Source of the DNA: Clostridium sp. CAG:492
GTDB lineage: Bacteria > Bacillota > Clostridia > TANB77 > CAG-508
Assembly (NCBI GenBank): GCA_000434335.1
Contig: FR878232.1
Location: 5,066 to 69,065 of the forward strand
Length of the DNA: 64,000 bases
Reading direction: 5' to 3'
The notes under the pieces are model-generated. The model was not told the DNA's origin, ran no database searches, and saw only the letters and a list, made by a program, of their open reading frames with translations. The position numbers and the translations under genes are program-made. Positions 11,392 to 50,300 of this stretch are shown here, piece after piece. Each line of letters starts with the position of its first letter. Position 1 is the first letter of the stretch.

Positions 11392-11406
11392 ACAGGGAGG
11401 TAGAAT

Positions 11407-14390: not shown

Positions 14391-16302
14391 TGAAGAAGCA
14401 AGAAAAAGAATAATAAGAAGAAAAACAATAAAAGAAATGATAGCACCAACAGGTATTGATGCCTCAAGCCTAGATCACTTAGAAATAATTTCAAATATAA
14501 ATAGATATGCACGAAGCTTTTTCGTGGCCAATTTACCACGTATGTGTACATTCCCAGAGCTATTTAGAAGTATGTATATGTTTGGTGATATAAACACATC
14601 TGTTTATATAAGTCCAATTTTGGAATCAAAATCGCAAAACGATTTAAACAGAGTAATAAATGAGCTAGAAACAGAGAGAATTTTAGCTGAAGATAGAGGA
14701 AATATAAACAGAGCAAGATTACTTGCACAAAAAAGAATGGAAACAGAAGATTTAAGAGACGAGATAGCAGCAGGATTTAATAAAATGTTTGAAGCAACAA
14801 TTGTTTCTACATTATTTGCGTATGATTTAAAAACTTTAGATACATATACAAGATTACTTTCTACAGAAATGGCCAAAAGTTTAGTTGATTTAAAGTCAAC
14901 TTGGGCAAACCAAGAGCAAGGTTTTCAAACTAATTTGCCATTAATGAGAAAGAAAATAGATGAAAAACATTTATTTGATAGAGGATCAATGGGAACCGTA
15001 TTTCCATTTGTAACAAGTGAAATAGGTCACCCAACTGGAATACCTCTAGGATATAATGCACAAACAGGAACTCCAATTTTATTCGATAATTTTCATGAGT
15101 CATTAACAAATTACAATATGGTTATTTTTGCAAAATCTGGTGCTGGTAAATCTGTAACAATGAAAACTTTAGTTTCTAGATCAGCAGTACTTATGGGAAT
15201 TGAAAGTTTAGCCTTAGATGCAGAAGGCGAGTATTCTGTAGTTGCTGAAAGTTTAGGCGGAATAAATGTTGTTATAAGCCCAAATTCGGATACTATAATT
15301 AATTTATTTGACTTAGAAACAGAAACTGTAAAAGATGAAATATTAGGTACAGAGCGAACTGTTTTAAATATTGAAAGTAAAATTGAAGATGTTACCCAAG
15401 CACTAGTTACTATGGCAAAAGGTAGTACAAAAAGTACAGAAGTAAATGAACTTACAAAACAAATAATTGCAGAGTCTGTAGCTGATGAATATGCAAGACT
15501 TGGAATAACAAATGATCCATCAAGTTTATATGAAAGTGAAGCTTCAAAAGTAGTAAATGGAGAAATAGTTAGACCAAAAAAGAAAATGCCAACTATAGGT
15601 TCGTGGTACAGACAAATACAAGAAAAAGCTGCTAATAATACAAACTCAGATTATCAGTTTCATTACAGTTATTTAATAAAGGTAATGAAACAATATGTAA
15701 GAGAGTATGATGGTCAAATGGCATATTTTGATGGACAGTCAACATTTGAATTACTAGAAGGAGCACCATTTATTAACCTAGATATTTCTGCACTAGAAGA
15801 AAGATTTGCAAGACCATTAGCACAACAAATTTTATTATCTTGGATTTGGGAGAAATTTGTAAAAAAGAATAGTGAAGATAGAAAGAAGGCAAGAAAAAAA
15901 CGTGTTTTAGTTGATGAGGCTTGGATGTTACTTCCGTATCCAGAAGCTGTAGACTTTTTAAATACAATGGCAAGACGTGCAAGAAAAAGAAATGTATCTT
16001 TAGCTGTTATATCACAGAGATTTCAGGACTTTTACGAAAAACAAGAAGTACAGGCTGTTCTTACATCATCAGAAACGAAGTTGTTTTTAGCACAAGATAA
16101 GTCTGAAATAGAGTATTTGAAAGAAGTGTTTAAGTTAAGCGAAGGTGAAGCCAACTTTTTAATAACTTGCCAAATAGGACAAGGGTTATTGAAAGTCGGT
16201 CAAGATACAGCAATAATTACAATTAGACCAACAGCAAAAGAATTTCAATTTATGGAAACTAACTTAAACAAAGTAATTGCCCAAAAATATGGAGCTTATT
16301 GA
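14335..16302 (+). CDS. VirB4-family T4SS ATPase
   Basis: Walker A FAKSGAGKSVT; Walker B RVLVDEAWML; N-terminal IAPTGIDASSLDHLEI...RSFFVANLP region typical of Gram-positive VirB4. Confidence 0.75.
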   Translation: MALFKKKIAQEVNQANKIDEEARKRIIRRKTIKEMIAPTGIDASSLDHLEIISNINRYARSFFVANLPRMCTFPELFRSMYMFGDINTSVYISPILESKSQNDLNRVINELETERILAEDRGNINRARLLAQKRMETEDLRDEIAAGFNKMFEATIVSTLFAYDLKTLDTYTRLLSTEMAKSLVDLKSTWANQEQGFQTNLPLMRKKIDEKHLFDRGSMGTVFPFVTSEIGHPTGIPLGYNAQTGTPILFDNFHESLTNYNMVIFAKSGAGKSVTMKTLVSRSAVLMGIESLALDAEGEYSVVAESLGGINVVISPNSDTIINLFDLETETVKDEILGTERTVLNIESKIEDVTQALVTMAKGSTKSTEVNELTKQIIAESVADEYARLGITNDPSSLYESEASKVVNGEIVRPKKKMPTIGSWYRQIQEKAANNTNSDYQFHYSYLIKVMKQYVREYDGQMAYFDGQSTFELLEGAPFINLDISALEERFARPLAQQILLSWIWEKFVKKNSEDRKKARKKRVLVDEAWMLLPYPEAVDFLNTMARRARKRNVSLAVISQRFQDFYEKQEVQAVLTSSETKLFLAQDKSEIEYLKEVFKLSEGEANFLITCQIGQGLLKVGQDTAIITIRPTAKEFQFMETNLNKVIAQKYGAY

Positions 16303-20426: not shown

Positions 20427-20457
20427 AATAAAAATGACCAGGAAAGGAGGTAAGGCT

Positions 20458-23400
20458 ATGAATGATAATAATGAAGAAGATGACGATGATGTAGTAGTAA
20501 ATGATGAAGCAGTTGATACTACTGATGGAGAAGCAGATAATAACGATGAAGGTTTGCAAAGTCAAAGTGATGTACAAGATGATATGCAAAATATTGCAAA
20601 CTCGATTAATTTAAAAAAAAGAAAAAATAAAGATAAAGCATCTGGAAAAAGATTATTAGCAGCAGGAAAAGCCTTATATCATACTGGTGATGTTTTAGTA
20701 AAAGTTGGAGAAGATACACAAAGAGTAGGTAATGAGATTAAGAACCTAGGAGAAAAGCTAAAAGAAAAAGGAAAGAAAGAAGTCAAAGATGCAACAGAAG
20801 ATTTTAAAACAGGTTTAAAACTTTGTAAAACAGGAGTAGGTGCACTTGTAGGAGTTCCATTATGTTTAAGAAGTATACTAAAAATGATTAAGGGTGGAGC
20901 TACTATACTTGGTGGTAGTATACTTAAGGTAATTGGTAGTTTAATAAACTTTATGGGAAAAGCACTAGCTGCCGTAGGAAAAGCAATGAGAGCCATTGGA
21001 CAAAAGATGATGGAAATTGCCAATAAGAAAATAGCAGAAGCTGGTGGAAATATTTCTAATTTGTCTATGCCAGGAGGAAAAAATGATAAAGATGATGTTG
21101 AAGTTAATTCTATTCCCGGCGTTGGCGGATTATCAGAAACAAAATTAAGTAAAACAAAAAAAATAATAATTATGATAGCAATAGGTGCGGCGATCGTTAT
21201 AGCTTTTGTTTGGATTCTTATGCAAGATTGGGAATCGACAAAGGAAAATGGTAGTGAAGTTACAGGAGATTTAAAAAATGTTCCATATACTGTATCATCT
21301 AAAATAATGGACAATTTGGTTATTGCCACAGATGAATCTGGAGCATATACATATGGGTTTAAAAATGATGATGGTGAAATTGTTGATATAGATCAGGCAA
21401 TTGATTCAGCAATAAAATCATTAGAGGAAAATAAAAGCAAATCATTGTATTATTTGGGTAAGAATACTGATAATAGAAAAGCACTACTAAAAAAAATGAT
21501 TTTAGCGGAAATTGCAACACAATATCCAGATTTAAGTGATTCTGTTGATTTAGGTTTAAGTGGTACAAGTACTTCTGGAACATCAAGTAGTGTAAATAGT
21601 TCAAATGATACAAATAGTAATTCATCTAGTAGTTCAACAAATGTTGATGAAATTATTAAAAATATGACAATTGAAGAAAAAATATATCAAATGATAATGA
21701 TGCAAGCAATAGTAAGTGATGGTTCAAATTATGCGGATACTTCAGTTGGAGGAGTTATTGTTGCAACTAATTCTAATTATGATGCAAATTTAGCAAATAT
21801 TGGATCAAAATATAAAATAACACCTTTTGTTGCTACTGATGATGAAGGTGGAAATGTAGAAAGAGCAGCAACTGGATATAAAACAGCAAGAGAATATGGC
21901 GATTCTGAAGATTATGATGAATTATATAATTCAGAAGTAAAAAAATGCAAAGAATTATTGTCAAAAGGAATTAATTTGAATTTAGGTCCTGTTTCTGATG
22001 TTATTAGTAGTGGCGCATTATATGACCGTAGCTATGGTAGTGATTCTGCTAAGGTTGAAAAATGTATAGAAACAATACTTAAAGCAAGAGCATCAGTTAA
22101 TGTTAGTGGAAATAGTGTAGGATCTACATTAAAACATTATCCGGGTTATCCTGATAATAATACTAATACAGATACAGGAATTGCAAAGGATAATAGATCT
22201 ATTGACAAAATAAATGATAATATAAATGTATTTAAACAAGGAGTAAATAATGGAGCTAATGCTATAATGGTTTCAAATGTAATTTATACAAACTTAGATG
22301 CTAATAATCCAGCTTCATTATCACCAACAATTATTTCAGGATTAAGATCTTCTTTTTCTGGAGTTATAATGACAGATGACATTGGTTCAGCAGCTGGTGT
22401 AAGTAGTATTTCAGATAGATATAAAAAAGCTATCTTAGCTGGAAATGATATGATATTAGTGTGGGATTCTAATTTAAATGACGCATATTCACAAATAAAG
22501 GCAGCAGTTGATAGTGGCGAAATTACTGAAGAGCGTATTAATGAATCTGTTACAAGAATTTTAAATTGGAAGTTGAACGGAGGTACTTTAAGTGGAAATA
22601 ATAGTAGCTCTTCGAATAAAAACTCAGTAAAAGCAACAGCTGGAACTGGAGATGCAAAGACAAGTGAAAAATTTAACAGCTCTTCAAAAATTAATGGTGG
22701 AATTAAAGTGCAAAGAAAACTTGAAAGTGGTAGTGTAATTAATTTAAAATACACATCTACAGAAAATTTTAATGCTTTGATGGCTTCTAATAGTGATGAT
22801 ATAATAAATTATTATACATTACAAAAAAAGGCATCAAGTTCAAGTTCAAAATCTATCGAAGGTGATTTTAGTGGATCTAATAATGCAGAGATAATTTGGA
22901 ATTTTTTAACTAGTAAAGGATTGTCAGAAACGTGTACTGCTGCAATATTAGGAAATTTATATAAAGAAAGTGGACTTAACCCAGGAGTGGAAGAAAACAC
23001 ACCTGCATTAGATAAGGGATACGGTTTGGCACAATGGACATTTGAAAGACGAACACAAATAGAAACATATGCACAGGCTATGAATAAACCTGTAAGTGAT
23101 ATTGAATTACAGTTACAATTTTTATGGTTAGAAATTGATTCAGATGCAGACCATACATATGCAAACCTTCAATGGGGAGGAAGAGATGGATGGCAAGATA
23201 CTAATGGTTTATATCAACGATTTATTAATATGACAGATATAGATGAGGCAACAGCATTTTTCTGCTGGAATCATGAAAGACCAAATGAAGAATATGCTCA
23301 TTTAGAGGGCGAAGATGGAAGAAAAGCTTGGGCTAAAAAGTTTTATGATTTGTATGCAGGTAAAAAATCATCTTCAAGTTCGTCAACTACAAGTAGTAGT

Positions 23401-25521
23401 AAGAAGAATGAGGATTCATCGGATAACGAAAAATCTAATGAAAATAGTAGTGCAACAGAGCAATCTTTTGATAATTACTTATTTATTGGAGACTCAAGAT
23501 ATGAGGGAATATCTAGTGAATTATCAGCATTAGGAAGTAATGTAACAGTATGTGCTGCGACATCTTCTGCTCCAAGTGAATGGATAGATATTGCTAAAAA
23601 TGGATCTGGAACTGTTAAGGGAAAAAGCCAAACATTACCAAGTACTGTAAAAAATGTTTCAATAATGCTTGGTGTAAACAATTTATCTGAAACAGCAGAA
23701 ATGGAATATTTAATGAATGCGTTACACGAAAAATATAGTAGTGCTACAATATATGCAAATAGTGTATTTCACGTTGGATCAGCATATTCTGGAGCAGCTT
23801 CAAATGAAGCAATAGATAAATACAATGACGAAATAAGAAATTTCTGCAATCAAAATAGCTCTTGGGCAAAATATATTGATGTTACAAATGGATTAAATGA
23901 TGAATCTGGATACTTAAAATCTGAATATGCTACATCTGATGGATTACATATTGGATCAACAGAGGGAAAAACAACATTAGTAAACAATATTGAAACAGCA
24001 ATAACTGGTGCATCTTCAACAGGAAGCACAACTACGAGCGATGTTGCTGCATCTTCATTACCAGGATATACAATTGTTGTTGCAAATAGAACTAGTACAA
24101 TAACAAATGTTGTTGAAAGTTACCAATATACAGGAACAAGTTATACAGATATTGGACATAGCAGTTATATTGATAATGGAAAAAGATGGTCAAATCCAAG
24201 TAGTGGTCCAAAAAGTAATAGAACAACAGCAGTATATTCACCAACAGCTGTTGCATACCAAGAGGCTTTGAAAAATTATACATTATACTTTAATTTTTTG
24301 TGGGCAGTTTTAGTTGATACAGAAAATATAAATCTTGTAGGAGAATGGGCAGATTTAGTTTGCGATAATGTTGGAAAAAATTCAAAAGTAGTTGTAACAG
24401 TATACTCAGATGTAGAAACTACAACAACTCAAACAGAGAATTCGAGAGTACAAAGTTTTATATCAAATGAAAATGGAATTGTTATTGATGACACATATAA
24501 TGTAACAGAAATAATATATTCAACTATATCAAAAATGAAATCAAAATTAGCTGTTACATATGCAGATACATGGTTGATGAAATATGAAAATAATGCAGAA
24601 ACGTATGATGAATATACATCAAAATCGAAAGAAAGTATAACTGAAAAAGTGGACATTGATGATGAAAATGAAACTAAATCTACAGATACTAATGATGATA
24701 AAGAAAAAAATGCAATTGAAATTTTAAAAGAAAATGATGTATCACTTAGAACAATGAAAAAAGAGAAAAAAATAATAAAAGAAATGTTAAGCTCTAGTGA
24801 AAAAGTAAGTTTTATGGTTGATATATTGGACTATATTTTGGATAAAGCAAGTGGAAATGATACAGAAGAAAATGCATTATCGAAATTATTAGATGTAAGT
24901 TCATTTAATTTGAATACATTTACTCCAACAAGTGGAACTTCGTCAAATGGAGAAGCACTTGCAGGTGGTTCAATAGAAAGTGTAAATGGAGGAGGATATC
25001 GAACTAAATTTACAACTGGAGGTAGAACATTTGTTGAATATAAACAAGGTTGGGGGAATACTGCACCTTGGGGGAATGTATATGTAAATGGCTGGAGTAG
25101 TGGAAGCAATATGGGAAATTCTGGATGTGCATTAACATCAATTGCAGTTATCGCAACTGGATATGGCGTTAATATTTCACCTCAAGATGTTGCTGATCTT
25201 GTAAATAGTGGCGAATATAATTGGGGAGATCTTTTAGGTATAACTAAACATTACATTGGAAAATCTTGTGAGTGGCAAACAACTGGAGATATTCAACATG
25301 CAATAATAAATCAATTAAAAGCTGGTAAGCCTTGTATGGTGCATACTACTGTTAATTATCCAGATGGACATTTTCTTACAGTTTTGGCATACAACGAGGA
25401 GACACAAGAAGTTTATGTTTCTAATGTTGGTGGATGGTATGATGATGATCCAACAAGAAATGGTTGGCAACCAGTAGAAAAATTGAGTGAATATGATGAA
25501 TGTATGTTAATTGGTGATTAG
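20458..25521 (+). CDS. multidomain cell-wall hydrolase (GH3 NagZ-like, lysozyme-like muramidase, SGNH esterase, C39/CHAP-like Cys peptidase) with an N-terminal TM
   Basis: KHYPGYPD and GVIMTDDIGS / AGNDMIL (GH3). AAILGNLYKESGLNP...GYGLAQWT (phage-tail-lysozyme-like). FIGDSRYEG ... GVNN ... DGLHIG (SGNH). GNSGCALTSIAV ... DGHFLTVLAYN ... VYVSNVGG (papain-like). The ATG at 20458 follows the RBS AGGAAAGGAGG. Confidence 0.6.
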   Translation: MNDNNEEDDDDVVVNDEAVDTTDGEADNNDEGLQSQSDVQDDMQNIANSINLKKRKNKDKASGKRLLAAGKALYHTGDVLVKVGEDTQRVGNEIKNLGEKLKEKGKKEVKDATEDFKTGLKLCKTGVGALVGVPLCLRSILKMIKGGATILGGSILKVIGSLINFMGKALAAVGKAMRAIGQKMMEIANKKIAEAGGNISNLSMPGGKNDKDDVEVNSIPGVGGLSETKLSKTKKIIIMIAIGAAIVIAFVWILMQDWESTKENGSEVTGDLKNVPYTVSSKIMDNLVIATDESGAYTYGFKNDDGEIVDIDQAIDSAIKSLEENKSKSLYYLGKNTDNRKALLKKMILAEIATQYPDLSDSVDLGLSGTSTSGTSSSVNSSNDTNSNSSSSSTNVDEIIKNMTIEEKIYQMIMMQAIVSDGSNYADTSVGGVIVATNSNYDANLANIGSKYKITPFVATDDEGGNVERAATGYKTAREYGDSEDYDELYNSEVKKCKELLSKGINLNLGPVSDVISSGALYDRSYGSDSAKVEKCIETILKARASVNVSGNSVGSTLKHYPGYPDNNTNTDTGIAKDNRSIDKINDNINVFKQGVNNGANAIMVSNVIYTNLDANNPASLSPTIISGLRSSFSGVIMTDDIGSAAGVSSISDRYKKAILAGNDMILVWDSNLNDAYSQIKAAVDSGEITEERINESVTRILNWKLNGGTLSGNNSSSSNKNSVKATAGTGDAKTSEKFNSSSKINGGIKVQRKLESGSVINLKYTSTENFNALMASNSDDIINYYTLQKKASSSSSKSIEGDFSGSNNAEIIWNFLTSKGLSETCTAAILGNLYKESGLNPGVEENTPALDKGYGLAQWTFERRTQIETYAQAMNKPVSDIELQLQFLWLEIDSDADHTYANLQWGGRDGWQDTNGLYQRFINMTDIDEATAFFCWNHERPNEEYAHLEGEDGRKAWAKKFYDLYAGKKSSSSSSTTSSSKKNEDSSDNEKSNENSSATEQSFDNYLFIGDSRYEGISSELSALGSNVTVCAATSSAPSEWIDIAKNGSGTVKGKSQTLPSTVKNVSIMLGVNNLSETAEMEYLMNALHEKYSSATIYANSVFHVGSAYSGAASNEAIDKYNDEIRNFCNQNSSWAKYIDVTNGLNDESGYLKSEYATSDGLHIGSTEGKTTLVNNIETAITGASSTGSTTTSDVAASSLPGYTIVVANRTSTITNVVESYQYTGTSYTDIGHSSYIDNGKRWSNPSSGPKSNRTTAVYSPTAVAYQEALKNYTLYFNFLWAVLVDTENINLVGEWADLVCDNVGKNSKVVVTVYSDVETTTTQTENSRVQSFISNENGIVIDDTYNVTEIIYSTISKMKSKLAVTYADTWLMKYENNAETYDEYTSKSKESITEKVDIDDENETKSTDTNDDKEKNAIEILKENDVSLRTMKKEKKIIKEMLSSSEKVSFMVDILDYILDKASGNDTEENALSKLLDVSSFNLNTFTPTSGTSSNGEALAGGSIESVNGGGYRTKFTTGGRTFVEYKQGWGNTAPWGNVYVNGWSSGSNMGNSGCALTSIAVIATGYGVNISPQDVADLVNSGEYNWGDLLGITKHYIGKSCEWQTTGDIQHAIINQLKAGKPCMVHTTVNYPDGHFLTVLAYNEETQEVYVSNVGGWYDDDPTRNGWQPVEKLSEYDECMLIGD

Positions 25522-28460: not shown

Positions 28461-28555
28461 AAAACATCTTGAATAAATTTCCATATTTATATTATAATAT
28501 GAATATGAAAATTTATTTTTTTGCTCTAACAAGCGAAAAGAAAGGATTTTATGGT

Positions 28556-29821
28556 ATGAATTATAATAAAAGTATAATTAAAAATGGAATTACATTTCAC
28601 AAGGTAACAACAAATAAGTTTAAAACAAATTTATTTGCAATATTTTTAACTACACCAATTACAAGGGAAACAGTAACAAAAAATGCTTTAATTAGTGCAG
28701 TTTTAAGACGAGGAACTAATAATATTTCAACACAAGAGGGTATATCAAAAGAGCTTGAAAATATGTATGGAGCAAGTTTTGACTGTGGTATCGAAAAAAA
28801 TGGAGATAACCAAATTTTAAAATTTTATATTGAATCAATTAACGACGAATTTTTACCAAAGCAAGAAAATTTAGCACAAAAATCTTTACAATTATTATCA
28901 GATATAGTTTTTAATCCTTATACAGAAAATGGAACTTTCAAAAAAGAATATGTAGATGGAGAAAAAAATACTTTAAAACAATTAATAGAAGGAAAAATTG
29001 ATAACAAGACTAAATATGCTTTAGATAGATGCCTAGAAGAAATGTTCAAAAATGAGCCATATGGATTATATAAATTTGGATACACAGAGGACCTAGAAAA
29101 AATTACAGAGCAAGATTTATATAATCAATACCAAAATTTAATATCAAATTGTAAAATAGATGTGTTTGTATCTGGTTTCAATATAGAAAATTTAAACGAG
29201 AATGAAATTTTAGCTGATTTAAACGAAAGAACAGCAACATATATACCAACAGACATAAAAACAGAAGACAAGCAAATAAATAAGCCAAAACAAATTACAG
29301 AAAAAATGAATATTACACAAGGCAAATTGATGATAGGATTAGATATAAATGATTTAAAGGAAGATGAGCAATATATCGCATCAATGTACAATGTAATATT
29401 AGGAGGAGGGGCAAATTCTAAACTATTCCAAAACGTAAGAGAAAAAGCGAGTTTAGCCTACACAGCAGGTTCTGGATATTTAAAAGCTAAAAGCATAATA
29501 ATAATTAGATGCGGAATAGAAATTAAAAATTACGAAAAAGCTGTAGAAATAATAAAAGAACAATTAAACCAAATGTTAACAGGTGATTTTTCAGAAGAAG
29601 ATATAGAAAGCGCAAAACAACTAATATATGCATCAGTAAAAAGCATACCAGATACTCAAGACGGGGAGCTAATGTACTACTTTGCTCAAGAGCTATCAAA
29701 TAAATTTGTTAGTTTAGATGAATATATAACTAATATAAAGAAAGTGACAAAAGCGGAAATATTAAAAATAGCACAAAAAATAAAAATAAATACAATATAT
29801 TTCCTAACGGGCCAAGAATAA
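28556..29821 (+). CDS. M16-family peptidase, non-catalytic partner subunit
   Basis: M16 fold-like, lacks the HxxEH motif, paired with the downstream catalytic M16 gene. ATG at 28556 chosen over the upstream ORF-track start. Confidence 0.5.
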   Translation: MNYNKSIIKNGITFHKVTTNKFKTNLFAIFLTTPITRETVTKNALISAVLRRGTNNISTQEGISKELENMYGASFDCGIEKNGDNQILKFYIESINDEFLPKQENLAQKSLQLLSDIVFNPYTENGTFKKEYVDGEKNTLKQLIEGKIDNKTKYALDRCLEEMFKNEPYGLYKFGYTEDLEKITEQDLYNQYQNLISNCKIDVFVSGFNIENLNENEILADLNERTATYIPTDIKTEDKQINKPKQITEKMNITQGKLMIGLDINDLKEDEQYIASMYNVILGGGANSKLFQNVREKASLAYTAGSGYLKAKSIIIIRCGIEIKNYEKAVEIIKEQLNQMLTGDFSEEDIESAKQLIYASVKSIPDTQDGELMYYFAQELSNKFVSLDEYITNIKKVTKAEILKIAQKIKINTIYFLTGQE

Positions 29822-29949
29822 AAATTTAATTTAGTGACGGATTTTAAAGTTTATAGAATTTGAAAAATTAGTAAACTAGCAAATTTTAAAAAATTTGTAA
29901 TTCACAAAATGCAAAATTTAGTAAATGAAAGGAGAACTTTTATAAAAGG

Positions 29950-31227
29950 ATGAAAATATTAGATTGTTTAAAAATAAAAGAAAAAGCATATATTGAAGAC
30001 CTTGATAATGGACTAAAGGTTATTATTGTTCCCAAAAAGGAAAGTACCAAAAAATTTGTAATATGGGGAACTAAATTTGGTTCAATTGATAATAAATTTA
30101 TATTGCCAGAAACAGGTGAAGAAGTTACTGTTCCAGATGGCGTTGCACACTTTTTAGAGCATAAAATGTTTGAGCAACCAAATGGAACAAACAGCCTAGA
30201 TACAATGATGGCTTTAGGACTAGATGCAAATGCATATACAACAAATGACCATACTGCATATTTATTTGAATGTAGTGAAGACGAAAATTTTTATAAAGGT
30301 TTAGATGAACTTATGGATTATGTTCAAAGTCCATATTATACAAATGAAAATGTTGAAAAAGAAAAAGGAATAATTGGCCAAGAAATAATGATGTATGACG
30401 ATGACCCAGGATTTCAGTTATATTTAAATACTTTAAAATGCTTATATTCAAAATGTCCAATTAGAATTGATATAGCTGGAAGTATTGATTCTATAGCACC
30501 AATAAATCCAGACATATTATACAAGTGTTATAATACATTTTATAATCCATCAAATATGGTGCTTGTTGTATGTGGAAATTTTGAACCACAAAATATTTTA
30601 GAAGAAATAAAAAAACGTTTAAAACCTTCTAAAAATATTGGAGAAATACACAGAATTTATGAAGAAGAGCCAAAAGAAATAAATGAAAAACATATGGAAA
30701 AATCAATGTCTGTAAGTATGCCAATTTTTATGATTGGTATAAAAGACAAAATTGTAAATCCATCAGAGCGTGTAAGAAGACATATGGCTATTGAAGTTAT
30801 TTTAAATTTACTCATAGGTAAAAGTTCTAATTTGTATAAGAAATTATATGAAGAGCAAATATTACTAGGAGAAGCAGATTCTGAATATGAATTTTCAAAT
30901 CAATATGCACATATATTAATAAGTGGACAGTCAAATAATCCACAATTGGTACAAAATATGTTGATAACTGAAATTGAAAAGTTAAAAAATAATGGTTTTG
31001 TGGCAGAAGATTTTGAAAGAATGAAACGAAAAATATATGGAGAATTTGTAACAGAGTTTAATGATGTTGCAAGCATTTCCAGAATGTTTTTGGCAGATAC
31101 CGTAAAACAAATTAATTCATTTGATTATGTAGATGAATATGACAATATTACAATGGAATACGCAAAAGAGCTATTGAATGAAGTGTTTGTAGAAGATAAA
31201 ATGGTATTGTCAGTAATTAAAAATTAA
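29950..31227 (+). CDS. M16-family zinc peptidase (insulinase-like), catalytic subunit
   Basis: Inverted zinc motif HFLEH followed by the downstream Glu region. Confidence 0.65.
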   Translation: MKILDCLKIKEKAYIEDLDNGLKVIIVPKKESTKKFVIWGTKFGSIDNKFILPETGEEVTVPDGVAHFLEHKMFEQPNGTNSLDTMMALGLDANAYTTNDHTAYLFECSEDENFYKGLDELMDYVQSPYYTNENVEKEKGIIGQEIMMYDDDPGFQLYLNTLKCLYSKCPIRIDIAGSIDSIAPINPDILYKCYNTFYNPSNMVLVVCGNFEPQNILEEIKKRLKPSKNIGEIHRIYEEEPKEINEKHMEKSMSVSMPIFMIGIKDKIVNPSERVRRHMAIEVILNLLIGKSSNLYKKLYEEQILLGEADSEYEFSNQYAHILISGQSNNPQLVQNMLITEIEKLKNNGFVAEDFERMKRKIYGEFVTEFNDVASISRMFLADTVKQINSFDYVDEYDNITMEYAKELLNEVFVEDKMVLSVIKN

Positions 31228-31265
31228 GTTTTATAGAAAAATATAGTTTATAAAAGGTAAAAAAT

Positions 31266-32057
31266 ATGATTATAAAAACAGGATTTATTTCAAGAGTTGC
31301 CTTTACAATTGCAGGAATTGATATTTATTGGTATGCAGTTTTAATAGTTTCTGCAATTGTAATTGGAATAATATGGTCACTATTAAAAAGTGGCAGATAT
31401 AACATAAAATTTGATACAATTTTAGATTTATGCATATTTATGATTCCAATTTCAATTTTATGTGCAAGAGCATATTACGTGATATTTAATTTAAATTATT
31501 ACACAAATAATCCATTGGAAATATTAGATTTTAGAAATGGAGGACTTGCCATTTATGGAGGAATTATAGGTGCAGTTATAACGATAATTGTTTTTTGTAA
31601 AATTAAAAAAGTAAATATTTTAAATTTGACAGATTATATTGCACCAATAATTCCATTAGGACAAGCAATTGGAAGATGGGGAAACTACATAAATATTGAG
31701 GCATATGGAATAGAAACAAATTTACCATTAAAAATGGAAATAATAGAAAATGGAGTTACAAAATATGTGCATCCAACATTTTTATATGAGTCAGTTGGAA
31801 ATTTTATTTTATTTTTAATACTATTAAAAATGAGCAAAAATAGGAATTTTTCTGGACAAATTACTCTTTTATATTTTATAGGGTATGCGTTTATTAGATT
31901 TTTTATAGAAGGTCTTAGAACAGATAGCTTAATGATTGGAAATATAAGAGCTTCACAATTGTTATCATTAATTATTTTTATAATTTGTACAGTAGTTTAT
32001 ATAGTAATTGCAAAAAATAAAAGAATTAAATTGAAAGAGCGAGAAAATGTAAAATAG
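31266..32057 (+). CDS. lgt: prolipoprotein diacylglyceryl transferase
   Basis: Polytopic membrane protein with the Lgt signature AIGRWGNYIN. 263 aa. Confidence 0.75.
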   Translation: MIIKTGFISRVAFTIAGIDIYWYAVLIVSAIVIGIIWSLLKSGRYNIKFDTILDLCIFMIPISILCARAYYVIFNLNYYTNNPLEILDFRNGGLAIYGGIIGAVITIIVFCKIKKVNILNLTDYIAPIIPLGQAIGRWGNYINIEAYGIETNLPLKMEIIENGVTKYVHPTFLYESVGNFILFLILLKMSKNRNFSGQITLLYFIGYAFIRFFIEGLRTDSLMIGNIRASQLLSLIIFIICTVVYIVIAKNKRIKLKERENVK

Positions 32058-32804: not shown

Positions 32805-32892
32805 GCAGATGTGGCGGAACTGGCAGACGCACAGGACTTAAAATCCTGCGGTTGAATAAACCGTGCCGGTTCGATTCCGGCCATCTGCACCA
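32805..32892 (+). tRNA. tRNA-Leu (anticodon TAA), long variable arm, encoded CCA
   Basis: Cloverleaf: GCAGATG acceptor; anticodon loop CUUAAAA; TPsiC arm GGTTCGATTCC; ends GCACCA. Confidence 0.85.
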
Positions 32893-34542: not shown

Positions 34543-35841
34543 ATGGCTATTATAAAATATAAAGTTATACAAAAGAATTTAGAAGCTGTAATAAACTATG
34601 CCAAAAATGGAGATAAAATAGAAAAAGGGATACTTGTATGTGGCATAAATTGTTTGCCAGATACAGCATATTTCCAAATGATGCTCACAAAAAAGACATT
34701 TCATAAAGAAGATGGAAGGCTAGGTTATCATATAATTCAATCATTTAATGGAAAAGAGGTATCTCCTGAAAAATGTAATAGCATAGGTGTTGAATTTGCC
34801 AAAAGTCTATTTGGAGATAAATATCAGGTTTTAGTATGTACTCATATAGATAAAGAAAATGTCCATAATCATATCGTGCTAAATTCAGTTTCTTTTGTAG
34901 ATGGGCTTAAATACCACAATTCTAATGCAGAACTTGCTTTTTTAAGAGAAACAAGTGATGATTTATGTAGAAAGTATGGTTTATATGTTATTGAAAGTGA
35001 AAAAGCTGATAAAGAAAATGCTATTGCTAGAAATAGAACAAATAATTATAATCGCAATAGTGGCAAAATGGAGCTAATAAAAAACGATATTGATGAGGCA
35101 ATAAAGAATGCTAAAAAATATAAAGACTTTATTGATAACTTGGCTTATAAAGGCTATTATGTTAAAAAAAACAATAATGTAATATCTGTATCAACTCCAT
35201 ATTTTAATAGAAATATAAGACTTTCAAGAGCCTTTGGAGAAGATTATACCTTTGAAAATATTAAAAATAGAATTTATTATAGAGATTATCAATTTAAAGA
35301 AGATAAAGTATATAAAATTAGAATATATGAAGGTGTTAAAATTAATTCTGAATTATTAAAAATATCACCATTTTATAGATTATATGTGCATTTCTTATAT
35401 ATTTTAGGAAAATTACCACCTAAAATACGTTATGAAGAAAGAACACCAGAATATTACAGAGAAATAAATAAATTTAATAAGCTATGTGATGAGCTAAATA
35501 TGATTAGTGATTATAGCTTAACATCAATTACAGATATTCAAAATTTAAGGATTAAATATCTTGAAGAAATTTCACCTTTAAAAGCTCAAAGAGAAAAATA
35601 TAGAAAATTATATAATATAACCCAAAATGATGCCGATAAAACGATTCTCAAAGCAAAAATTAATCATTTAACTGAAGATATTGATAGATTGAATTCTAAA
35701 ATACAAACTTGCAGAAGAATTATTACTAAATTTGAAAAAGGAGAAAAAGAAGATTGGCTAATTCAGAAAAGATTTGAAAATAATAAGGAAATAAGTGAAA
35801 AAGAGATTTTGAAAAATAAAGATAATAGAAGAATAAGATAG
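34543..35841 (+). CDS. relaxase/mobilization nuclease (MobA/VirD2-type His-triad relaxase)
   Basis: HIDKENVHNHIVLN (HxDxxHxHxH motif III) with an N-terminal catalytic Tyr region. 432 aa. Confidence 0.65.
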   Translation: MAIIKYKVIQKNLEAVINYAKNGDKIEKGILVCGINCLPDTAYFQMMLTKKTFHKEDGRLGYHIIQSFNGKEVSPEKCNSIGVEFAKSLFGDKYQVLVCTHIDKENVHNHIVLNSVSFVDGLKYHNSNAELAFLRETSDDLCRKYGLYVIESEKADKENAIARNRTNNYNRNSGKMELIKNDIDEAIKNAKKYKDFIDNLAYKGYYVKKNNNVISVSTPYFNRNIRLSRAFGEDYTFENIKNRIYYRDYQFKEDKVYKIRIYEGVKINSELLKISPFYRLYVHFLYILGKLPPKIRYEERTPEYYREINKFNKLCDELNMISDYSLTSITDIQNLRIKYLEEISPLKAQREKYRKLYNITQNDADKTILKAKINHLTEDIDRLNSKIQTCRRIITKFEKGEKEDWLIQKRFENNKEISEKEILKNKDNRRIR

Positions 35842-40192: not shown

Positions 40193-41167
40193 ATGCAGAC
40201 AATAAAAGCGTGTAGTGCATATAATTTTATGTTTAAGCCTATTCAGAATGTAACAAGAACAGACATAGAAAGATTTTTACAGGCAGAAAAGCACAAATCT
40301 AATTCTTCTATTTCAAAAGAGTATGCTATTATCAAAAATGCATTTGCACTTGCTTATAAAAAACATTTAATTGATAGAGATATTGCATTAGATTTTAATA
40401 TTGATCCAGTAGAAAAACCTAAAAGTGAAAAACAAGATAAAGATGTTGTTGCTTTTACAATAAGAGAAGAATATACACTAATTCAGTATATAAATACACA
40501 TTATTCAAAATACAATAATATGCTTTTGTTAGCACTTTATACGGGAATGAGAATTGGAGAAGTTCTAGCATTAACAATTAACGATTTTGATTTTGATGAA
40601 GGTTATGGAACAATTAGTGTAAATAAAACTTTAACTAAAAATAAAAGTGGAAAAATAATAATTGGAAATGTTACTAAAACCAAAAATGGAAAAAGAAATT
40701 TGCATTTAGATAAAGTTTCAAAAGAAGTTGCACTAAAAGCAATTGCGGAAATGACTCAAAATAAAAGAAACCTAATATTCCTTCGCAGAGATGGAAAGCT
40801 ATATTATGATAGTCAAATAAATAGTGCATTTAAAAGAATTTGTAAAAATGCTGGGATAAAAGTAATTATGACTAAACATAGAAAAGTGTCTAAATCAAAA
40901 GGAGTTCACTATGTAAATGAACAGACCAGTGAGGCACATACACATATGTTAAGACACACATTTGCAACTAGATGTATTGAAGCAGGAATGGATTTAGCAA
41001 CACTGCAAAAAGTTTTAGGGCATGCTAATATTCAAACAACTATAAATATTTATGGAGATATATTTGATTATCATCAGAAAAATCAAATGTATAAATATAC
41101 AGAATATATGGACAAAATGAATGAAAAATATGAAAAACTATTTGAAAATAGTACGATACAAGAATAG
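40193..41167 (+). CDS. tyrosine site-specific recombinase/integrase
   Basis: Catalytic-domain motifs [11 protein letters not shown] (box I R), HMLRHTFAT (box II) and [15 protein letters not shown] (Tyr). The reading frame is open from 40028 with no ATG before 40193. Confidence 0.75.
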
Positions 41168-44026: not shown

Positions 44027-44050
44027 AAAAATGTAATAAAAATGTAATAA
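44027..44050 (+). promoter_or_regulatory. 22-bp tandem repeat AAAATGTAATAAAAATGTAATAA upstream of adhesin gene 1
   Basis: Identical 22-mer at 47167-47189; near-identical copies at 61786-61825 and 12491-12512. Lies ~50 bp upstream of a TTGACT -35-like hexamer. Confidence 0.5.
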
Positions 44051-44168
44051 TTGCCAATTAAACGTATTTCCCTAGCAAAAACCTCCCAAAATGCTAAAAA
44101 TATAAATTTGACTTACAAAAAAAATAATTTAAAATATAGTTAAAATAAAAAGAGGGAGGATTTGAGGA

Positions 44169-46976
44169 ATGAGCAAGAAATTTACAAAAATATCTATAGT
44201 GTTTTTTATAATATTGCTATCAATATTATTTAACAAAACTTCAAATGCAGAAACTTTTCAGCCTATGGGCATAGGTACTAACGATAGAAACACAACAAAC
44301 GCATTTTATAGGACAGTAGGTTCAGACAAGCAAATGTGGCAATACACAAAAGATAATCGAAGTACTGTTACCGAAAATGTATATTGTGCTAGTGAAGGAA
44401 AAAGCTTTGTAGGACCTCATAAATATGAAGGTTATGACCTTTATTATGAAAAAGGGAAAAGTGATTATTCTGTAATTTCTGCAAATTATAATAAAATATT
44501 GTGGATATTAGATAACGCATATGTGGACAAAAATGTAGATTCAGCTACTCAATCTGCAATGATTGAAAACTTAAAAAAAGTTACAAATGGAAGCGTTGAT
44601 TCACAAATTGACTACATAAACTCACATGCATACAAAAATGAATTATTTTATGAAATTACACAATGCCTATTATGGAGTTATACTAAGAATGCTAGCAATT
44701 TAGGTGGTATCACCAATATTAAATATGGAGCTACAAATTATACACAAGCAATGGACGTTTATAATGCTTTAAAAAAGGTTGCGGATACTAAAGGTAATTA
44801 TGAATCTTTAAATGTAAATGCAAATGAAGTTAAAACATATATAAATTCATTATCTTTTGATAATACTGCCGCAAAAATTGAAGGAAATGTTGTTGGTCCA
44901 TTTACATTAAATAACTATAATGAAAAATATAATTTTCCATCTGAATGGTTTGTTACAGTAAATGGGAGAGTAAATAAGGATTATAGTGTTAGAAGAGAAG
45001 AAAATAAATTTTATATAGAATTTAATTCTAATTTACCATCTACTTGTAATGTAAATGTTGATTTAGTTATGCAATATATTATTACAACTGGTAAATTTTG
45101 GTTTCAAGATGATGAAGGTCAAGAGCTAATTACTGTAAATAAAGAGCGTGTTATAAATGATATTTCAGCCAATGTTGCACAAAGTAGTAAATACTTTTTA
45201 GATGCAGTAAAACTTGAATATGGAAGTAGTAATAGGGTTCCAGGGGCAACAATTTCGATAAAATCTGAAAATGAAAGTGTTGTATATAAAACTGGTAAAA
45301 CTGGAGAAAATTGGGGAAGTTTAAAAACAGAAGATTTTACAACTTCAAAAACTTTTATTATTACAGAAGATGAAGCTCCAGATGGTTATATTAATTCTTT
45401 AAGTGGTATTAAAATTAAACTAACAGTGCAAAAAAATGGTACATCGTTTAATTCATATATTAAAATTTATAAAGATGGCAAAGATGTTACTTCTAAATAT
45501 AATAGGTTTGTAATATTATCAACTTTAAAATCTGATGACGATTCGGTTAGAATTGGTTTATATATTAGAGATATAAAAAACGTAAATTATAATTTATGTG
45601 TTATAAAAAGAAGTGCAAAAACTCAAAAAGGTTTAGCTAATGCTAAATTTGATGTTTATGAAAGTGATATGAAAACTGTAAAAGGTAGTTTAGTAACAGC
45701 TACAAATGGTTATTCTAATTTTATTTCTTATGACGTTAATGATTTGAATTCTGGTTTAAGTAAAATTTATGTAAAAGAGGTTGAGGCTCCTGCTGGTTAT
45801 GAACTTAATAACGAAAATGAGCCTATTGAAATACAACCTTATGTTGATGAATATGGTAATATAACTATTAACGAAATTAACACAGATACACTTAAAACAT
45901 ATGTGCAAGATATTGGTGGTGTTCAAACTATTACTGTAGAAAAATTTGATTCTTTAAAAAATGGTAATTATAATATTAAAATTGTTAAAATTGATTCTAA
46001 AGGAAATACTGTTTCTTCTAATGAAACAAAATTTATGGTAAATGATACCGAACTAGCAACAACAAATGGTGTTTTAGATGTTGTTACTGGTAAAAAAATA
46101 ACAGAGGATAACCAAACAGATACATATAATATAACTGAAAGTGCAGCACCTGATGGATATGGCAAATATAGTGGTAATATTAGTTTAAATGTTATTGGAA
46201 AAGAAGATGAAAATGGATATCAATTAAATAAAGATGCTACATATTTAGAGGTTAATGGCGAAAAAGTTGAGCAAGGTAAATTTTCTAGTGATGGATTTGT
46301 TTATTGGGATATTAATGATAATACTATATGTTTAAAACTTAAAAATAGTTGTTTTGATTTAGCTCTTCGTAAATGGGTAACTGAAGCGATTGTAACCGAA
46401 AATGGTAAAACAGTTACAACTAAAACTGGACATAGTGCAGATGATGATCCAGAGTCTGTTGTTAAAGTTGATTTAAAAAAGAGCAAGTTAAATGATGTTG
46501 TTGTAAAATTCAAATATTCAATTAGAGTAACAAATGAAGGTGAAATTGCAGGTGAGGCAACAGAAATTAGAGATGATATACCTGCTGGATTAAAATTTGT
46601 TGCAGAAGATAACCCTGACTGGAAAGAAGAAAATGGCCAAATTGTTACAAATAAATTGGCTAATACAACATTACAACCTAACGAAAGTGCAGAAGTTGAA
46701 ATTATATTAACGTGGATTAATAGCGAAAAGAATATGGGCGTAATGGTTAATACTGCTGAAATAAATAAAGACCATAATGATTATGGAGCTAAGGATATTG
46801 ATTCAACACCTGGTAATAAGGTTCCAGGAGAAGACGATATAGATGATGCACCAGTAATGATTACAGTTAAAACTGGTACATATATTATAAGCGTAGTTTC
46901 ATTAATATGTGGTGTAGTGTTAATATTATCAATAGGAATTGTTTTTATAAAAAAGAAAGTTATTAGTATCTATTAA
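44169..46976 (+). CDS. surface protein with an N-terminal thioester-domain-like adhesin region, Ig-like repeats, a C-terminal DLALRK (DUF11-like) domain and a TM anchor
   Basis: Signal peptide. VYCASEG (Cys) and EITQCLLW (TQxxxW) fit the TED Cys/Gln motifs. C-terminal FDLALRKWVT...VTNEGEIAG...DIPAGLKFV, then TM plus a basic tail (no LPXTG). Confidence 0.55.
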   Translation: MSKKFTKISIVFFIILLSILFNKTSNAETFQPMGIGTNDRNTTNAFYRTVGSDKQMWQYTKDNRSTVTENVYCASEGKSFVGPHKYEGYDLYYEKGKSDYSVISANYNKILWILDNAYVDKNVDSATQSAMIENLKKVTNGSVDSQIDYINSHAYKNELFYEITQCLLWSYTKNASNLGGITNIKYGATNYTQAMDVYNALKKVADTKGNYESLNVNANEVKTYINSLSFDNTAAKIEGNVVGPFTLNNYNEKYNFPSEWFVTVNGRVNKDYSVRREENKFYIEFNSNLPSTCNVNVDLVMQYIITTGKFWFQDDEGQELITVNKERVINDISANVAQSSKYFLDAVKLEYGSSNRVPGATISIKSENESVVYKTGKTGENWGSLKTEDFTTSKTFIITEDEAPDGYINSLSGIKIKLTVQKNGTSFNSYIKIYKDGKDVTSKYNRFVILSTLKSDDDSVRIGLYIRDIKNVNYNLCVIKRSAKTQKGLANAKFDVYESDMKTVKGSLVTATNGYSNFISYDVNDLNSGLSKIYVKEVEAPAGYELNNENEPIEIQPYVDEYGNITINEINTDTLKTYVQDIGGVQTITVEKFDSLKNGNYNIKIVKIDSKGNTVSSNETKFMVNDTELATTNGVLDVVTGKKITEDNQTDTYNITESAAPDGYGKYSGNISLNVIGKEDENGYQLNKDATYLEVNGEKVEQGKFSSDGFVYWDINDNTICLKLKNSCFDLALRKWVTEAIVTENGKTVTTKTGHSADDDPESVVKVDLKKSKLNDVVVKFKYSIRVTNEGEIAGEATEIRDDIPAGLKFVAEDNPDWKEENGQIVTNKLANTTLQPNESAEVEIILTWINSEKNMGVMVNTAEINKDHNDYGAKDIDSTPGNKVPGEDDIDDAPVMITVKTGTYIISVVSLICGVVLILSIGIVFIKKKVISIY

Positions 46977-46980
46977 TATT

Positions 46981-47029
46981 AAAGCTTGATGTATTAAATA
47001 ATGTGTTTAATACATCAAGCTTTTTTTGT
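46981..47029 (+). terminator. strong rho-independent terminator (17-bp stem)
   Basis: AAAGCTTGATGTATTAAA...TTTAATACATCAAGCTTT followed by T7. Confidence 0.7.
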
Positions 47030-47166
47030 TGCTTTTTTTATATAATTTTGTATTTAATTAAAATTTTTTGGTAAATACACAAATTGGTTGATTAGTATTT
47101 GGGCTACGGAATTAAGGAAAAAAGAATTTTAGTCGAATAATTTAGTTTTTGTTACGAAAAAAGTAT

Positions 47167-47190
47167 GAAAATGTAATAAAAATGTAATAA
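47167..47190 (+). promoter_or_regulatory. 22-bp tandem repeat AAAATGTAATAAAAATGTAATAA upstream of giant adhesin gene 2
   Basis: Two 11-bp direct repeats one helical turn apart. Followed by TTGACT-N16-TAAAAT promoter-like hexamers at ~47236-47263. Confidence 0.5.
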
Positions 47191-47311
47191 ATACATAAAC
47201 AAATAAAATCCGTAGAATAAGTGTAGTTTTTTTAATAAATTTGTAATTTGACTTATATTTATAAATCATTAAAATGATGTTAAGATAAAAAACTTTTGAA
47301 GGGAGATTATC

Positions 47312-50300
47312 ATGAACGTTAAGAAAAGATGGTTTATTATTCCAATAGTTATTGTGTTTGCCATAACAATATTTTTATTGGCACATAATAATAATAAATT
47401 TAGCAGTTTTATGAGCTCTTTAGTTAAACAAGATGAAAATAAAAGTTGGACTAGAGATGAGGATAAAACTTATGTTAAAAATGATACAATTAATAAATAT
47501 GGAGAAAGCGTACAAAAAATTAATTTGTATACCATAAATGGTGGAATTGATTCTAGCGTTTTTGGATGGTGTATGAATAAAGGTGCAGCTTTATATGGAT
47601 ATGGAAATACTGGAGGATGGGGCTATGTTGATACGATAGATAAAAACTGGTCATCAGATAAAGGTAGTGTTAACTGGTTAATGGATAACATTATAAGATA
47701 TGGTAAAAGTGTTGAGAATACCGAAAAGGATTTTTATAAAAATAAATTGAATAGTTATGGAATTTCAGTAAATGGATTAGATGATGATCAAATATTTACG
47801 TTAGAGCAATATGCTTTATGGAAGTATACCAATAATCATTCTGTAAATAATGATAGATTAGATGGAAAGCTTGTAAGTAAAGCTAATGCTAATAGTAAAT
47901 ATTCATTAAATAAAACTAAGTTTGATATTGATAATTCTTCTGTAAAAATTAATTATAGTAATAATGTTGCAGTAGTTGGTCCATTTAATGTAAAAAATAA
48001 TGGATTTATGCATATTACAGCTAAAGCTAATAATGTTAATTTAGAAATGTTTAGTGATGCAAATTGTCAAAATAAAATATCTGAATATACTAATTATGCT
48101 GGAAATATTTATGTAAAATTAAACAATCCAAATAATAATACAAATATTGTTTTAAGTGGATATGAATATATAACAAAAGCTAGATATTATACTACAATTG
48201 ATAATACTCCAAATAATGAATCAAATCAACCATTTTTAATGATTGATAGAACTAAATCAGATGGAAGTAAATCTTTTAATTATGTAGTTTCTGGTAGTTA
48301 CCACATTAATGTTAAGAAAAAATCTACAACTAATGCTAACCAAAAAGTTGGTGCTAAATTTAAATTAACTCAAAAACTTTATGGTGCTAATACAGCTAAA
48401 GAATCAACTGTAGAAATAAAAAATACAGAAGAGCAAAAAACTGTAACTTTTAATGGTAAAGATGTTATTGATATTGATAAAGATGGCATAGGAGTTGGAA
48501 AACCAGATACATATACTATTTCGGAAGTTGAAGTGGAAGATGGATATCAAAAATTAGATTTATCTGGTGTAACTTTATATGTTTACAAAAAAATTGATGG
48601 TACTAAGTTACAAGTTGATTATGTAAGAGCAGTTATTAATGGTAAAAACGTAGATATTTATGCTGGAAATAGTGCAGAGCTTACTGTTAAAAATACAAAT
48701 GATTTAAAAATTGAAGTTAGCTCTACAGCATTTGCAATTGAAGTAAAAAATGCTCCTATTTTGGGAAGCTATAATATGAAAATTGCTAAAAGAGATGCTA
48801 ATACAAATTGGAGTGAATCTACAAATAATTCAACTTTAAATTTGGCAGATGCGAAGTTTAAGGTCAGACAATACATAAATATTGATGAACAAACATATAA
48901 TAATGCATTTAGGCAAGGTCAATCTTCAGATGTAGAATCATTTTTAAGTACAATGTCTGCTGTGGGAAATAAAAAAGAAGATAAATATCCTATAAGTCAA
49001 GAAAATAATTGGGTGTCTATATATAATAGTGATATAGAAATTAATAAAAATAGTGCTAATAAAATAGATATTTATGCTATAAATGAGGAGTCTGCTCCTT
49101 CTGGTTATAATAAAAATGCTAATGTTATGTATTTAAAAGTTACCAAAAAGGTAAATAGTAATGGTGATAAATATTGTATTGATAGTGTTAAATTTATTAA
49201 TTCGGCAAATGGTCAAGTAATTGATGAAAGAACTCCTAATGTTGTTACAAAAAATGAAAATGGAGGATTTACATATTACGTAAATAAAAGTGGCAATTAT
49301 AAAGTAGCATTTGATTCTTCTTCAATTTTTGTTACTTATGCGAATAATCAAATTGAAGGAAATTATAATTTACAAATATTAAAAAGATCTAGTGCTAATG
49401 ATTGGGAAAAGGATATAAATGATAAATCTAATACTTTAGCAGCAGATTTTAGTGTAAGACAATATTTAAACCAAGATAATACAGATTTTAATAATAAATT
49501 AAAACAATCTAATAATAATATTGAAACAGCTTTAAATGGTTTAACAAAGAGCGAAAAAAATGTTAAAACTCAAAAAGATGCTTGGACTACAATTTATGAT
49601 AATGTAAAAATAACTAAAAATGATGTAAATTTAATTGATATATATGCTTTAACAGAAACTAATGCTCCTGATGGTTATAATAAAAATAATAATACTATGT
49701 ATTTAAAAGTTTATAAAACTGTTAAAAGTGAAAGCAATGGTACAAATAAGTATTATATAGATAAAGTAAAATTTATGTCTGCAAATGGAAATGAACTTGA
49801 CGAAAATGTAACTGATATACAAAAAACAAATAATGGAAATTATGTTTATTATAAAAATAAATCTTTAAAATATATGTTTGCTTATAATTCAACTTCAATT
49901 ATGGTATTTTTTACAAACCAACCAATTGATGGTAGTTATAAAATGAACATTGTAAAAAGAGATATAAATGATAATTCAAATTCAACAACAAATTTAGGCA
50001 GTGCAGAGTTTGCGGTTAACCAATATTTAAATGGTGTTGAAGATAATGATAAATCTGATGATAAAGCCGATGCAATTGGTTATACAAGTAATAGTAAAAA
50101 TTCTGTTAAATTAGAAAAAGGTGTTACTCAAGATATTTACTATTCAAATTCTAATGTTGTAAAAATAACAGATATTACTAAAGTTGATGCATATACTTTT
50201 GAAGAAAAATCGGCTCCTGCTGGTTATGAAAAATCAAACTTAAAAGTTTTATTACAGGTTTATAAAACTAAAAAAACTAATTCTTCTGGAAATTTTGAGT

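Follow-up and report, generated by a model that had tools for sequence, protein, structure and literature searches.

Genes A and B and their N-terminal tips

We analysed a 64,000-nucleotide stretch of contig FR878232.1 from Clostridium sp. CAG:492 (hereafter the window), in which two neighbouring plus-strand genes, here called A and B, encode large surface proteins whose N-terminal tips are identified, with good support, as thioester domains (TEDs). We read the two proteins as fibrillar adhesins of the TIE (thioester, isopeptide, ester) kind that probably take part in mating-pair formation. The features of the genes and their tips are as follows.

44169..46976, + strand: gene A, a 935-residue TED adhesin with signal peptide, TED, stalk of SpaA/CnaB type, DUF11 domain and transmembrane anchor
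44346..45188, + strand: thioester domain of A including its beta-sandwich insert (about residues 60-340)
44385..44387, + strand: Cys73 of A (VYCAS), predicted thioester Cys from motif fit and column conservation
44661..44663, + strand: Gln165 of A in TQCLLW, a helper motif TQxx(phi)W (role of the motif from PMC6194298)
45120..45122, + strand: Gln318 of A (GQELI), predicted thioester-forming Gln from conservation and from sharing an hhalign column with Gln306 of B
47312..57514, + strand: gene B, first reading frame (open reading frame and Pfam), 3400 residues with N-terminal hydrophobic segment, TED and long repeat stalk
47474..48316, + strand: thioester domain of B, probably of Class II type (about residues 55-335), from AlphaFold2, Foldseek and Pfam TED matches in relatives
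47570..47572, + strand: Cys87 of B (GWCMN), predicted thioester Cys, which ends a beta-strand in the model
47807..47809, + strand: Gln166 of B in EQYALW, a helper motif of TQxx(phi)W type, on helix 111-127 of the model fragment
48227..48229, + strand: Gln306 of B (NQPFL), predicted thioester-forming Gln from conservation and model position

An earlier note on this DNA, made from its letters and translations, had proposed that both tips carry TED-like Cys/Gln signatures. The four peptides that it quoted are present in the translations where it placed them, namely ENVYCASEGKSF (containing Cys73) and YEITQCLLWSYTKN (containing Gln165) in A, and VFGWCMNKGAAL (containing Cys87) and FTLEQYALWKYTNN (containing Gln166) in B. 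For A, the assignment is given directly by Pfam, as its TED family PF08341 matches residues 71-203 above the curated gathering cut-off of 22 bits, scoring 27.6 bits with the whole protein (E 4e-6) and 30.5 bits with the N-terminal 344 residues (E 5e-7). The signal peptide of A ends ...NKTSNA/ETF.

For B, the assignment comes by way of its relatives. When the two tips were compared by BLASTP only the Gln motif aligned (E 0.11), and word-indexed homologue searches returned no relatives of either tip, the family alignment as query recovering a single protein, P0014. An exhaustive phmmer search over 1.84 billion cluster representatives yielded 18 relatives of the B tip, the best of them 40-43% identical, and Pfam TED matches 14 of these 18 (best E 5.2e-7, with aligned tips), B itself being unmatched. 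A profile of this family was then linked to the A tip by hhalign at a probability of 98% (E 2.2e-13), over 240 columns that cover residues 68-342 of A and in which the Cys pairs with the Cys and both Gln residues pair with Gln.

Structure prediction points the same way. With the 18-sequence alignment, AlphaFold2 (AF2) modelled residues 48-347 of B at a pLDDT of 83.7 and a pTM of 0.81; from the single sequence the pLDDT was 34.6. A Foldseek comparison of this model with the PDB gave four chains at E<=1e-3, all from two entries, both Class II TEDs: 6fwy, TIE86 of Enterococcus faecium (E 4e-8), and 6fwv, BaTIE of Bacillus anthracis (E 3e-6), each with a probability of 1.00 and with alignments spanning about 295-300 columns. 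No Class I structure occurs among the 50 Foldseek matches listed for the model. The TED fold was thus recovered for the tips, as the earlier note had expected: the profile search favoured a TED, profiles assigned no other fold, and the only significant structural matches of the B tip were TEDs of Class II. A chance coincidence of motifs was considered and rejected on the E-values of the Pfam TED, hhalign and Foldseek matches.

A genome scan with the B tip, started from a five-sequence alignment, led to three loci, and the nearest genomic relatives lie in uncultured Clostridium sp. UMGS2019, Clostridium sp. CAG:571 and an uncultured Bacillales assembly. The related B-tip loci likewise adjoin giant SpaA/DUF11 proteins. 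In the Bacillales locus (L005:8883-9464), a 193-residue cohesin-domain protein (Pfam E 5.5e-7) is encoded between a 2823-residue SpaA/DUF11 protein and the TED protein.

The predicted thioester pairs

In TEDs of solved structure, the bond-forming Cys sits in a [YFL]C-phi-zeta motif, and a second motif, TQxx(phi)W on helix alpha2, supplies a Gln and a Trp that lie beside the bond and form hydrogen bonds with the main chain of the Cys, without being essential for bond formation (PMC6194298). The Cys motif of A, Y-C-A-S, fits this definition, and that of B is W-C-M-N, with Trp replacing Y/F/L; the relatives of B have GWC or GYC. In the helper motif of B, EQYALW, E replaces T. Conservation was counted in a re-alignment of A with the 18 B-family sequences, 19 in all, the distal Gln being counted in the 15 that reach that far. 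The Cys is present in 18 of the 19, the lone exception (P0013) being an apparent misalignment; the helper Gln and the Trp four residues later are invariant (19/19 each), as is the distal Gln, Gln318 of A and Gln306 of B (15/15).

It is this distal Gln that we favour as the bonding partner. The Cys-Gln pairs of solved Class II TEDs are C71 and Q266 in BaTIE, C296 and Q467 in SaTIE, and C88 and Q292 in EfmTIE86, and in this class a beta-sandwich lies between helix alpha3 and strand P, after which the long P/Q hairpin returns to the N-terminal lobe in a slipknot (PMC6194298). The model of B has the same order of secondary structure as the published Class II order: a strand ending in the Cys, helices that carry the Gln and Trp of the helper motif, then, past the last helix, a run of beta-strands some 90 residues long (fragment residues 158-249), and a long hairpin. 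Of the two long strands, 230-249 (20 residues) and 261-277 (17 residues), Gln306 follows the first and precedes the start of the second by two residues. Based on the motif order and the conserved distal Gln, C73-Q318 in A and C87-Q306 in B are therefore predicted as the thioester pairs.

This prediction revises one element of the earlier note, which had taken TQxA(I/V)W as the motif of the thioester Gln. Gln165 of A and Gln166 of B belong to the helper motif, whose Gln does not bond in solved TEDs; because the Gln and Trp of TQxx(phi)W only flank the bond, the Cys...Gln spacing quoted there is not the spacing of the bond. The codon of Gln306 of B (48227-48229) lies just outside the interval that was marked.

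Among characterised proteins, BaTIE (PDB 6FWV) and EfmTIE86 (PDB 6FWY; PMC6194298) resemble the tips of A and B most closely, and are the sole significant structural matches of the B model. They share with the model of the B tip the strand-end Cys, the Gln/Trp motif on a helix and a predicted beta-sandwich before a long hairpin that would supply the bonding Gln, as well as the N-terminal position on a stalk of CnaB type, but their sequence identity is 11-13%. Class I TEDs (SfbI, FbaB and Cpa of Streptococcus pyogenes, CpTIE of Clostridium perfringens) share all three motifs with A and B, as well as the chemistry that is proposed for these. In place of the beta-sandwich of about 90-110 residues in A and B, they have a linker of only about 10. 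The apparent tie of A and B to Class II TEDs is drawn from comparison of predicted structure and from Pfam.

Stalks, anchors and genomic setting

Behind the TED, both proteins continue into a stalk of isopeptide-type (CnaB/SpaA) domains, which were recognised by Pfam. The stalk, anchor and control features are listed below.

44108..44135, + strand: promoter-like TTGACT-16-TAAAAT 5' of gene A (consensus scan, pattern match only)
46872..46973, + strand: C-terminal anchor of A, comprising ITVKTG, a hydrophobic helix and KKKVISIY (translation, hydropathy)
46981..47023, + strand: strong terminator-like hairpin 3' of gene A, 20-bp stem followed by a T run (from the sequence)
47248..47275, + strand: promoter-like TTGACT-16-TAAAAT 5' of gene B (consensus scan and alignment with the region upstream of A)
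57494..57500, + strand: A7 homopolymer at which the frame of gene B shifts (context TTTT-AAAAAAA-GACGG)
57501..61637, + strand: gene B, second reading frame (listed as open reading frame 57714-61637), with further stalk repeats, four DUF11 stretches and anchor
61539..61634, + strand: C-terminal anchor of B, comprising LTIKTG, a hydrophobic helix and KDTRKSKK (translation, hydropathy)

In A, Pfam finds two SpaA domains (PF17802, 2.5e-18) and one DUF11 domain (1.8e-8), and NCBIfam finds a DUF11-type repeat and nothing further. In B, five SpaA domains (PF17802, 6.8e-42) lie in the first frame and two (1.8e-12) in the second, which also has four DUF11 matches (8.5e-17). Motifs of the type E..AP.GY recur in both translations.

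The open reading frame 47312-57514 of B ends KKRRLF* with no anchor, and the transmembrane anchor lies in the next open reading frame, 57714-61637, in another frame. Deletion of one A from the A7 run (a +1 frameshift) joins the two into a single open reading frame of 4,774 residues, 47312-61637, with no internal stop. This repaired protein has an N-terminal hydrophobic segment, at least 21 stalk repeats of 115-135 residues as counted with a self-built hidden Markov model, four DUF11 stretches, and a C-terminal transmembrane helix with a basic tail. The long Ig-repeat stalk with a C-terminal transmembrane anchor, as claimed in the earlier note, is accordingly found in A, and in B if the frameshift is repaired. 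The shift itself may reflect a sequencing error, phase variation or decay; the relative in the Bacillales assembly (L005:9722-13709) is similarly split, into an 871-residue open reading frame with TED and stalk and a 320-residue open reading frame with a DUF11 anchor.

The prediction that the anchor is a transmembrane helix with a basic tail, and not LPXTG, agrees with what we find. No LPXTG-like motif occurs near either C-terminus, and no scanned open reading frame of the window matches a sortase family. Many relatives of the B tip share the C-terminal module of A, FDLALRKWVT...DDIDDAPVM followed by a transmembrane helix and a basic tail, and the sequence APVM[IL][TSA][IV][KTR]TG abuts the transmembrane helix in A, in B and in seven homologues (P0001, P0002, P0006, P0007, P0011, P0017, P0018). 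The block that bears this xxKTG element before the helix occupies positions 46845-46880 of the window in A and 61510-61545 in B. Its layout resembles that of a sorting signal, yet it has no Pro and is not LPXTG; it may form the final strand of the DUF11 domain, or else act as a non-canonical sorting motif. BaTIE, SaTIE and EfmTIE86, in contrast, are anchored through LPXTG and sortase (PMC6194298), and the stalk of B, at 4,774 residues for the repaired protein, is far longer than those of BaTIE and EfmTIE86, which have roughly 600-800 residues. The same general architecture, an adhesive tip on a long stalk of tandem Ig-like domains whose length sets the reach, is that of fibrillar or 'periscope' adhesins (for example PMC9210967 and PMC9704523), which are a general class and not a family homologous to A and B.

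The regions upstream of A (44040-44168) and of B (47180-47311) have in common AAATGTAATAA, TAATTTGACTTA, TTAAAAT and a GGGAG ribosome-binding site, suggestive of duplicated control regions and of co-regulation of the two genes.

Near A and B lies a full set of conjugation genes of Gram-positive type. Genes for a type IV secretion system (T4SS), a relaxase and replication span 4224-35841 of the window, which has about 26% G+C and nearly all of its long open reading frames on the plus strand; A and B lie on the same strand as the transfer genes and have the same uniform 26% G+C. The principal genes are these.

4224-5810: type IV coupling protein
6006-9961: methylase (N6) and helicase
10960-12356: two VirB2-like pilins
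12634-13074: PrgI-like protein
14335-16302: VirB4-like ATPase
20434-25521: cell-wall hydrolase of 1695 residues, with glycoside hydrolase family 3, phage-tail-lysozyme and C39-like peptidase domains
34543-35841: MobA/VirD2 relaxase
40193-41167: integrase

RepA_N and TnpV proteins are also encoded in the window. The 1695-residue hydrolase, unusually large and composite, presumably serves the transfer apparatus by opening the cell wall, and a 1006-residue protein that matched no family, also within the transfer set, is possibly VirB6-like. The VirB4-like protein is about 40% identical to its nearest plasmid proteins, from C. beijerinckii and C. botulinum. In PLSDB no match was obtained for either tip (tblastn, covering 72,556 plasmids), for the C-terminal module of B (tblastn) or for the T4SS region (megablast).

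Several neighbouring features are of a different kind. Within the transfer run, 28469-32057 holds two genes for M16 (insulinase-like) peptidases and one for prolipoprotein diacylglyceryl transferase (Lgt), an unusual cargo for a conjugative element, and a tRNA-Leu gene (anticodon TAA) at 32805-32892, between Lgt and the RepA_N and relaxase genes, could either indicate a site of integration or travel with the element. The left end of the window, before the gene for the coupling protein, holds genes for a Mur ligase family protein and a DnaJ-like protein (484-2833), which belong either to the chromosomal flank or to the element's cargo. The roughly 2.4 kb 3' of gene B (61638-64000) contain no open reading frame above 64 residues on either strand; they may be the edge of the element, where the DNA is non-coding or has degraded.

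A proposed role in mating-pair formation

We propose that A and B are two TIE-kind surface adhesins that use a tip thioester, most likely for mating-pair formation, a reading to which we assign a probability of roughly 0.7. Both would leave the cell by way of their N-terminal signal or hydrophobic segment, stay attached to it through the C-terminal transmembrane helix and basic tail, and rise above the surface on the Ig-like stalk of SpaA/CnaB-type and DUF11 domains. At the tip, the strand-end Cys (Cys73 of A, Cys87 of B) would form an internal thioester with the Gln that follows the beta-sandwich (Gln318 of A, Gln306 of B), with the helper Gln and Trp on the helix (Gln165 and Trp169 of A, Gln166 and Trp170 of B) flanking the bond. 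An amine on the target surface would then attack the thioester to give a covalent amide link, as in SfbI and Cpa; for the thioester of SfbI the reaction partner is a single Lys of fibrinogen (cited in PMC6194298 and PMC8092201). In this way A and B may fasten donor to recipient cells with stalks of two very different lengths.

Mating-pair formation is the most likely role because transfer genes lie nearby and because TIEpLS20, the Class II TED adhesin encoded by gene 34 of plasmid pLS20 and annotated as 'thioester domain-containing protein', is required for pLS20 conjugation in liquid (PMC8092201). A C68S substitution abolishes the conjugation function of TIEpLS20, which has no LPXTG and no sortase requirement (PMC8092201). 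The parallel with A and B is that a TED-tipped adhesin is encoded together with type IV secretion and relaxase genes of Gram-positive type, and that neither LPXTG nor an element-encoded sortase is found. The differences are that the pLS20 protein (p34) has no C-terminal transmembrane helix, whereas A and B have one; that p34 is encoded inside the conjugation operon, whereas A and B lie about 8 kb past the relaxase; and that A and B form a pair of paralogues, of which one is giant.

Several results weigh against this reading. At the level of the domain, the first 400 residues of B drew no match at E<=1 from Pfam or NCBIfam, and no TED was found when PDB sequences were searched with the A tip, or by PDB sequence and profile searches with the B tip and the B-family profile; the sequence matches of the tips were at chance level (a glutamate receptor, an epimerase). 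The B model superposes poorly on 6fwy and 6fwv as a whole (TM-score about 0.3, root-mean-square deviation 10-14 Å), and the spacing of the predicted Cys-Gln pairs, 245 residues in A and 219 in B, exceeds the 171-204 of solved Class II TEDs. As to the role, comparison of the B-family profile with p34 alone by hhalign gave a probability of 0.12%, and that of the B family plus A with a ten-member p34-family profile gave 0.1-0.2%. p34 and its nine plasmid relatives, which make up the latter profile, all have the Cys and the distal Gln, which the paper numbers Gln256; the distal Gln of A and B aligns with Gln256 solely in the relaxed, non-significant alignment, which we do not count as evidence. 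Because the profile-profile comparison is not significant in any mode (global, local or relaxed), A and B are not, as far as their sequences can be compared, detectably members of the p34 clade. What the loci related to B show is tandem giant surface proteins, A and B begin about 8.3 kb past the relaxase, beyond the integrase and genes on the opposite strand, B is frameshifted and as sequenced possibly lacks its anchor, and the suggested link to conjugation is one of proximity and precedent only.

The main rival accepts A and B as true TED adhesins and makes them cargo, which would attach covalently to host mucus or matrix, food particles or biofilm partners while riding on or beside a mobile element. 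SfbI, Cpa and BaTIE, like most TEDs that have been characterised, are adhesins directed at the host (PMC6194298, PMC8092201), and it is in gut-type assemblies of uncultured Clostridium and Bacillales that the closest genomic relatives occur. The position of A and B outside the T4SS run, the promoter-like site that each gene has of its own and the lack of a detectable sequence relation to the p34 clade also fit a cargo role. However, adhesin genes beside Gram-positive T4SSs often serve mating-pair formation, as with PrgB and TIEpLS20 (PMC8092201), A and B share strand and G+C content with the transfer genes, and one adhesin can fill both roles, as PrgB does. Such a cargo role is possible, if distinctly less probable than a function in mating. 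A little more doubtful again is the idea that gene B is dead or switched off, so that a 3400-residue product without anchor is released or degraded and A works alone; in a variant of this idea, slippage in the A run makes B phase-variable. It would account for the single extra A at 57494-57500 that divides the frames and whose removal restores the 4,774-residue frame, and the Bacillales relative, with its separate TED-stalk and anchor frames, offers a parallel. Yet no other stop interrupts either half of B across 14.3 kb, a point against an old pseudogene, and a homopolymer miscount is a common error of sequencing and assembly.

Two further explanations concern the chemistry of the tip and not its use. 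The fold might be TED-like without a reactive thioester, the Cys and Gln being structural or serving non-covalent binding in what would be ordinary lectin-like or protein-binding adhesins. Bond formation is predicted from sequence, B has WC in place of [YFL]C and EQ in place of TQ, and the wide Cys-Gln spacing and poor global superposition also speak for such a fold; the conserved pattern described above, however, would be difficult to account for if no bond formed, and we consider this reading very unlikely. A nucleophilic-Cys enzyme (papain-like, NlpC/P60 or transglutaminase-like) is extremely unlikely, and a Cys peptidase or transglutaminase identity was rejected. The conserved Cys does follow an aromatic residue, and one transglutaminase chain appears low in the Foldseek list (6kzb, E 0.24, probability 0.08), but Pfam and NCBIfam gave no peptidase or transglutaminase match, the conserved columns include no His or Asp partner, and every significant structural match is a TED.

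TED adhesins, the Class II fold, the presence of such adhesins on conjugative plasmids and anchoring without LPXTG have all been published, and A and B are new, divergent examples of a known adhesin type that bring no new mechanism and leave the understanding of how TEDs work unchanged. The size of B, the pairing of short and long paralogues, the A7 frameshift and the xxKTG-transmembrane ending are notable and yet unsurprising. Taken jointly, these features could describe a covalent 'harpoon' pair, one short and one long (935 and 4,774 residues), with which a conjugative element of uncultured gut Firmicutes catches recipients at two distances, the long member being switched on and off by slippage in A7 and both being held by a sortase-independent transmembrane anchor or through xxKTG as a new sorting signal; we regard this combined picture as unlikely. 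The analysis also gives concrete candidate residues for mutation, Cys73 and Gln318 in A and Cys87 and Gln306 in B, and the corrected position of the predicted bonding Gln matters for any mutagenesis or mass-spectrometry design built on the earlier note.

The B tip belongs to a small sub-family, of 18 cluster representatives so far, that standard models hardly detect, and on the combined picture just given it would stand for a TED sub-family mostly missed by current family models. The tip of B itself escapes Pfam and NCBIfam, and a B-family profile would improve the detection of adhesins of this sort. The occurrence of two TED adhesins beside type IV secretion genes in a poorly sampled, low-G+C, gut-type lineage extends the association of such adhesins with conjugation systems beyond the plasmids of Bacillus and Listeria.

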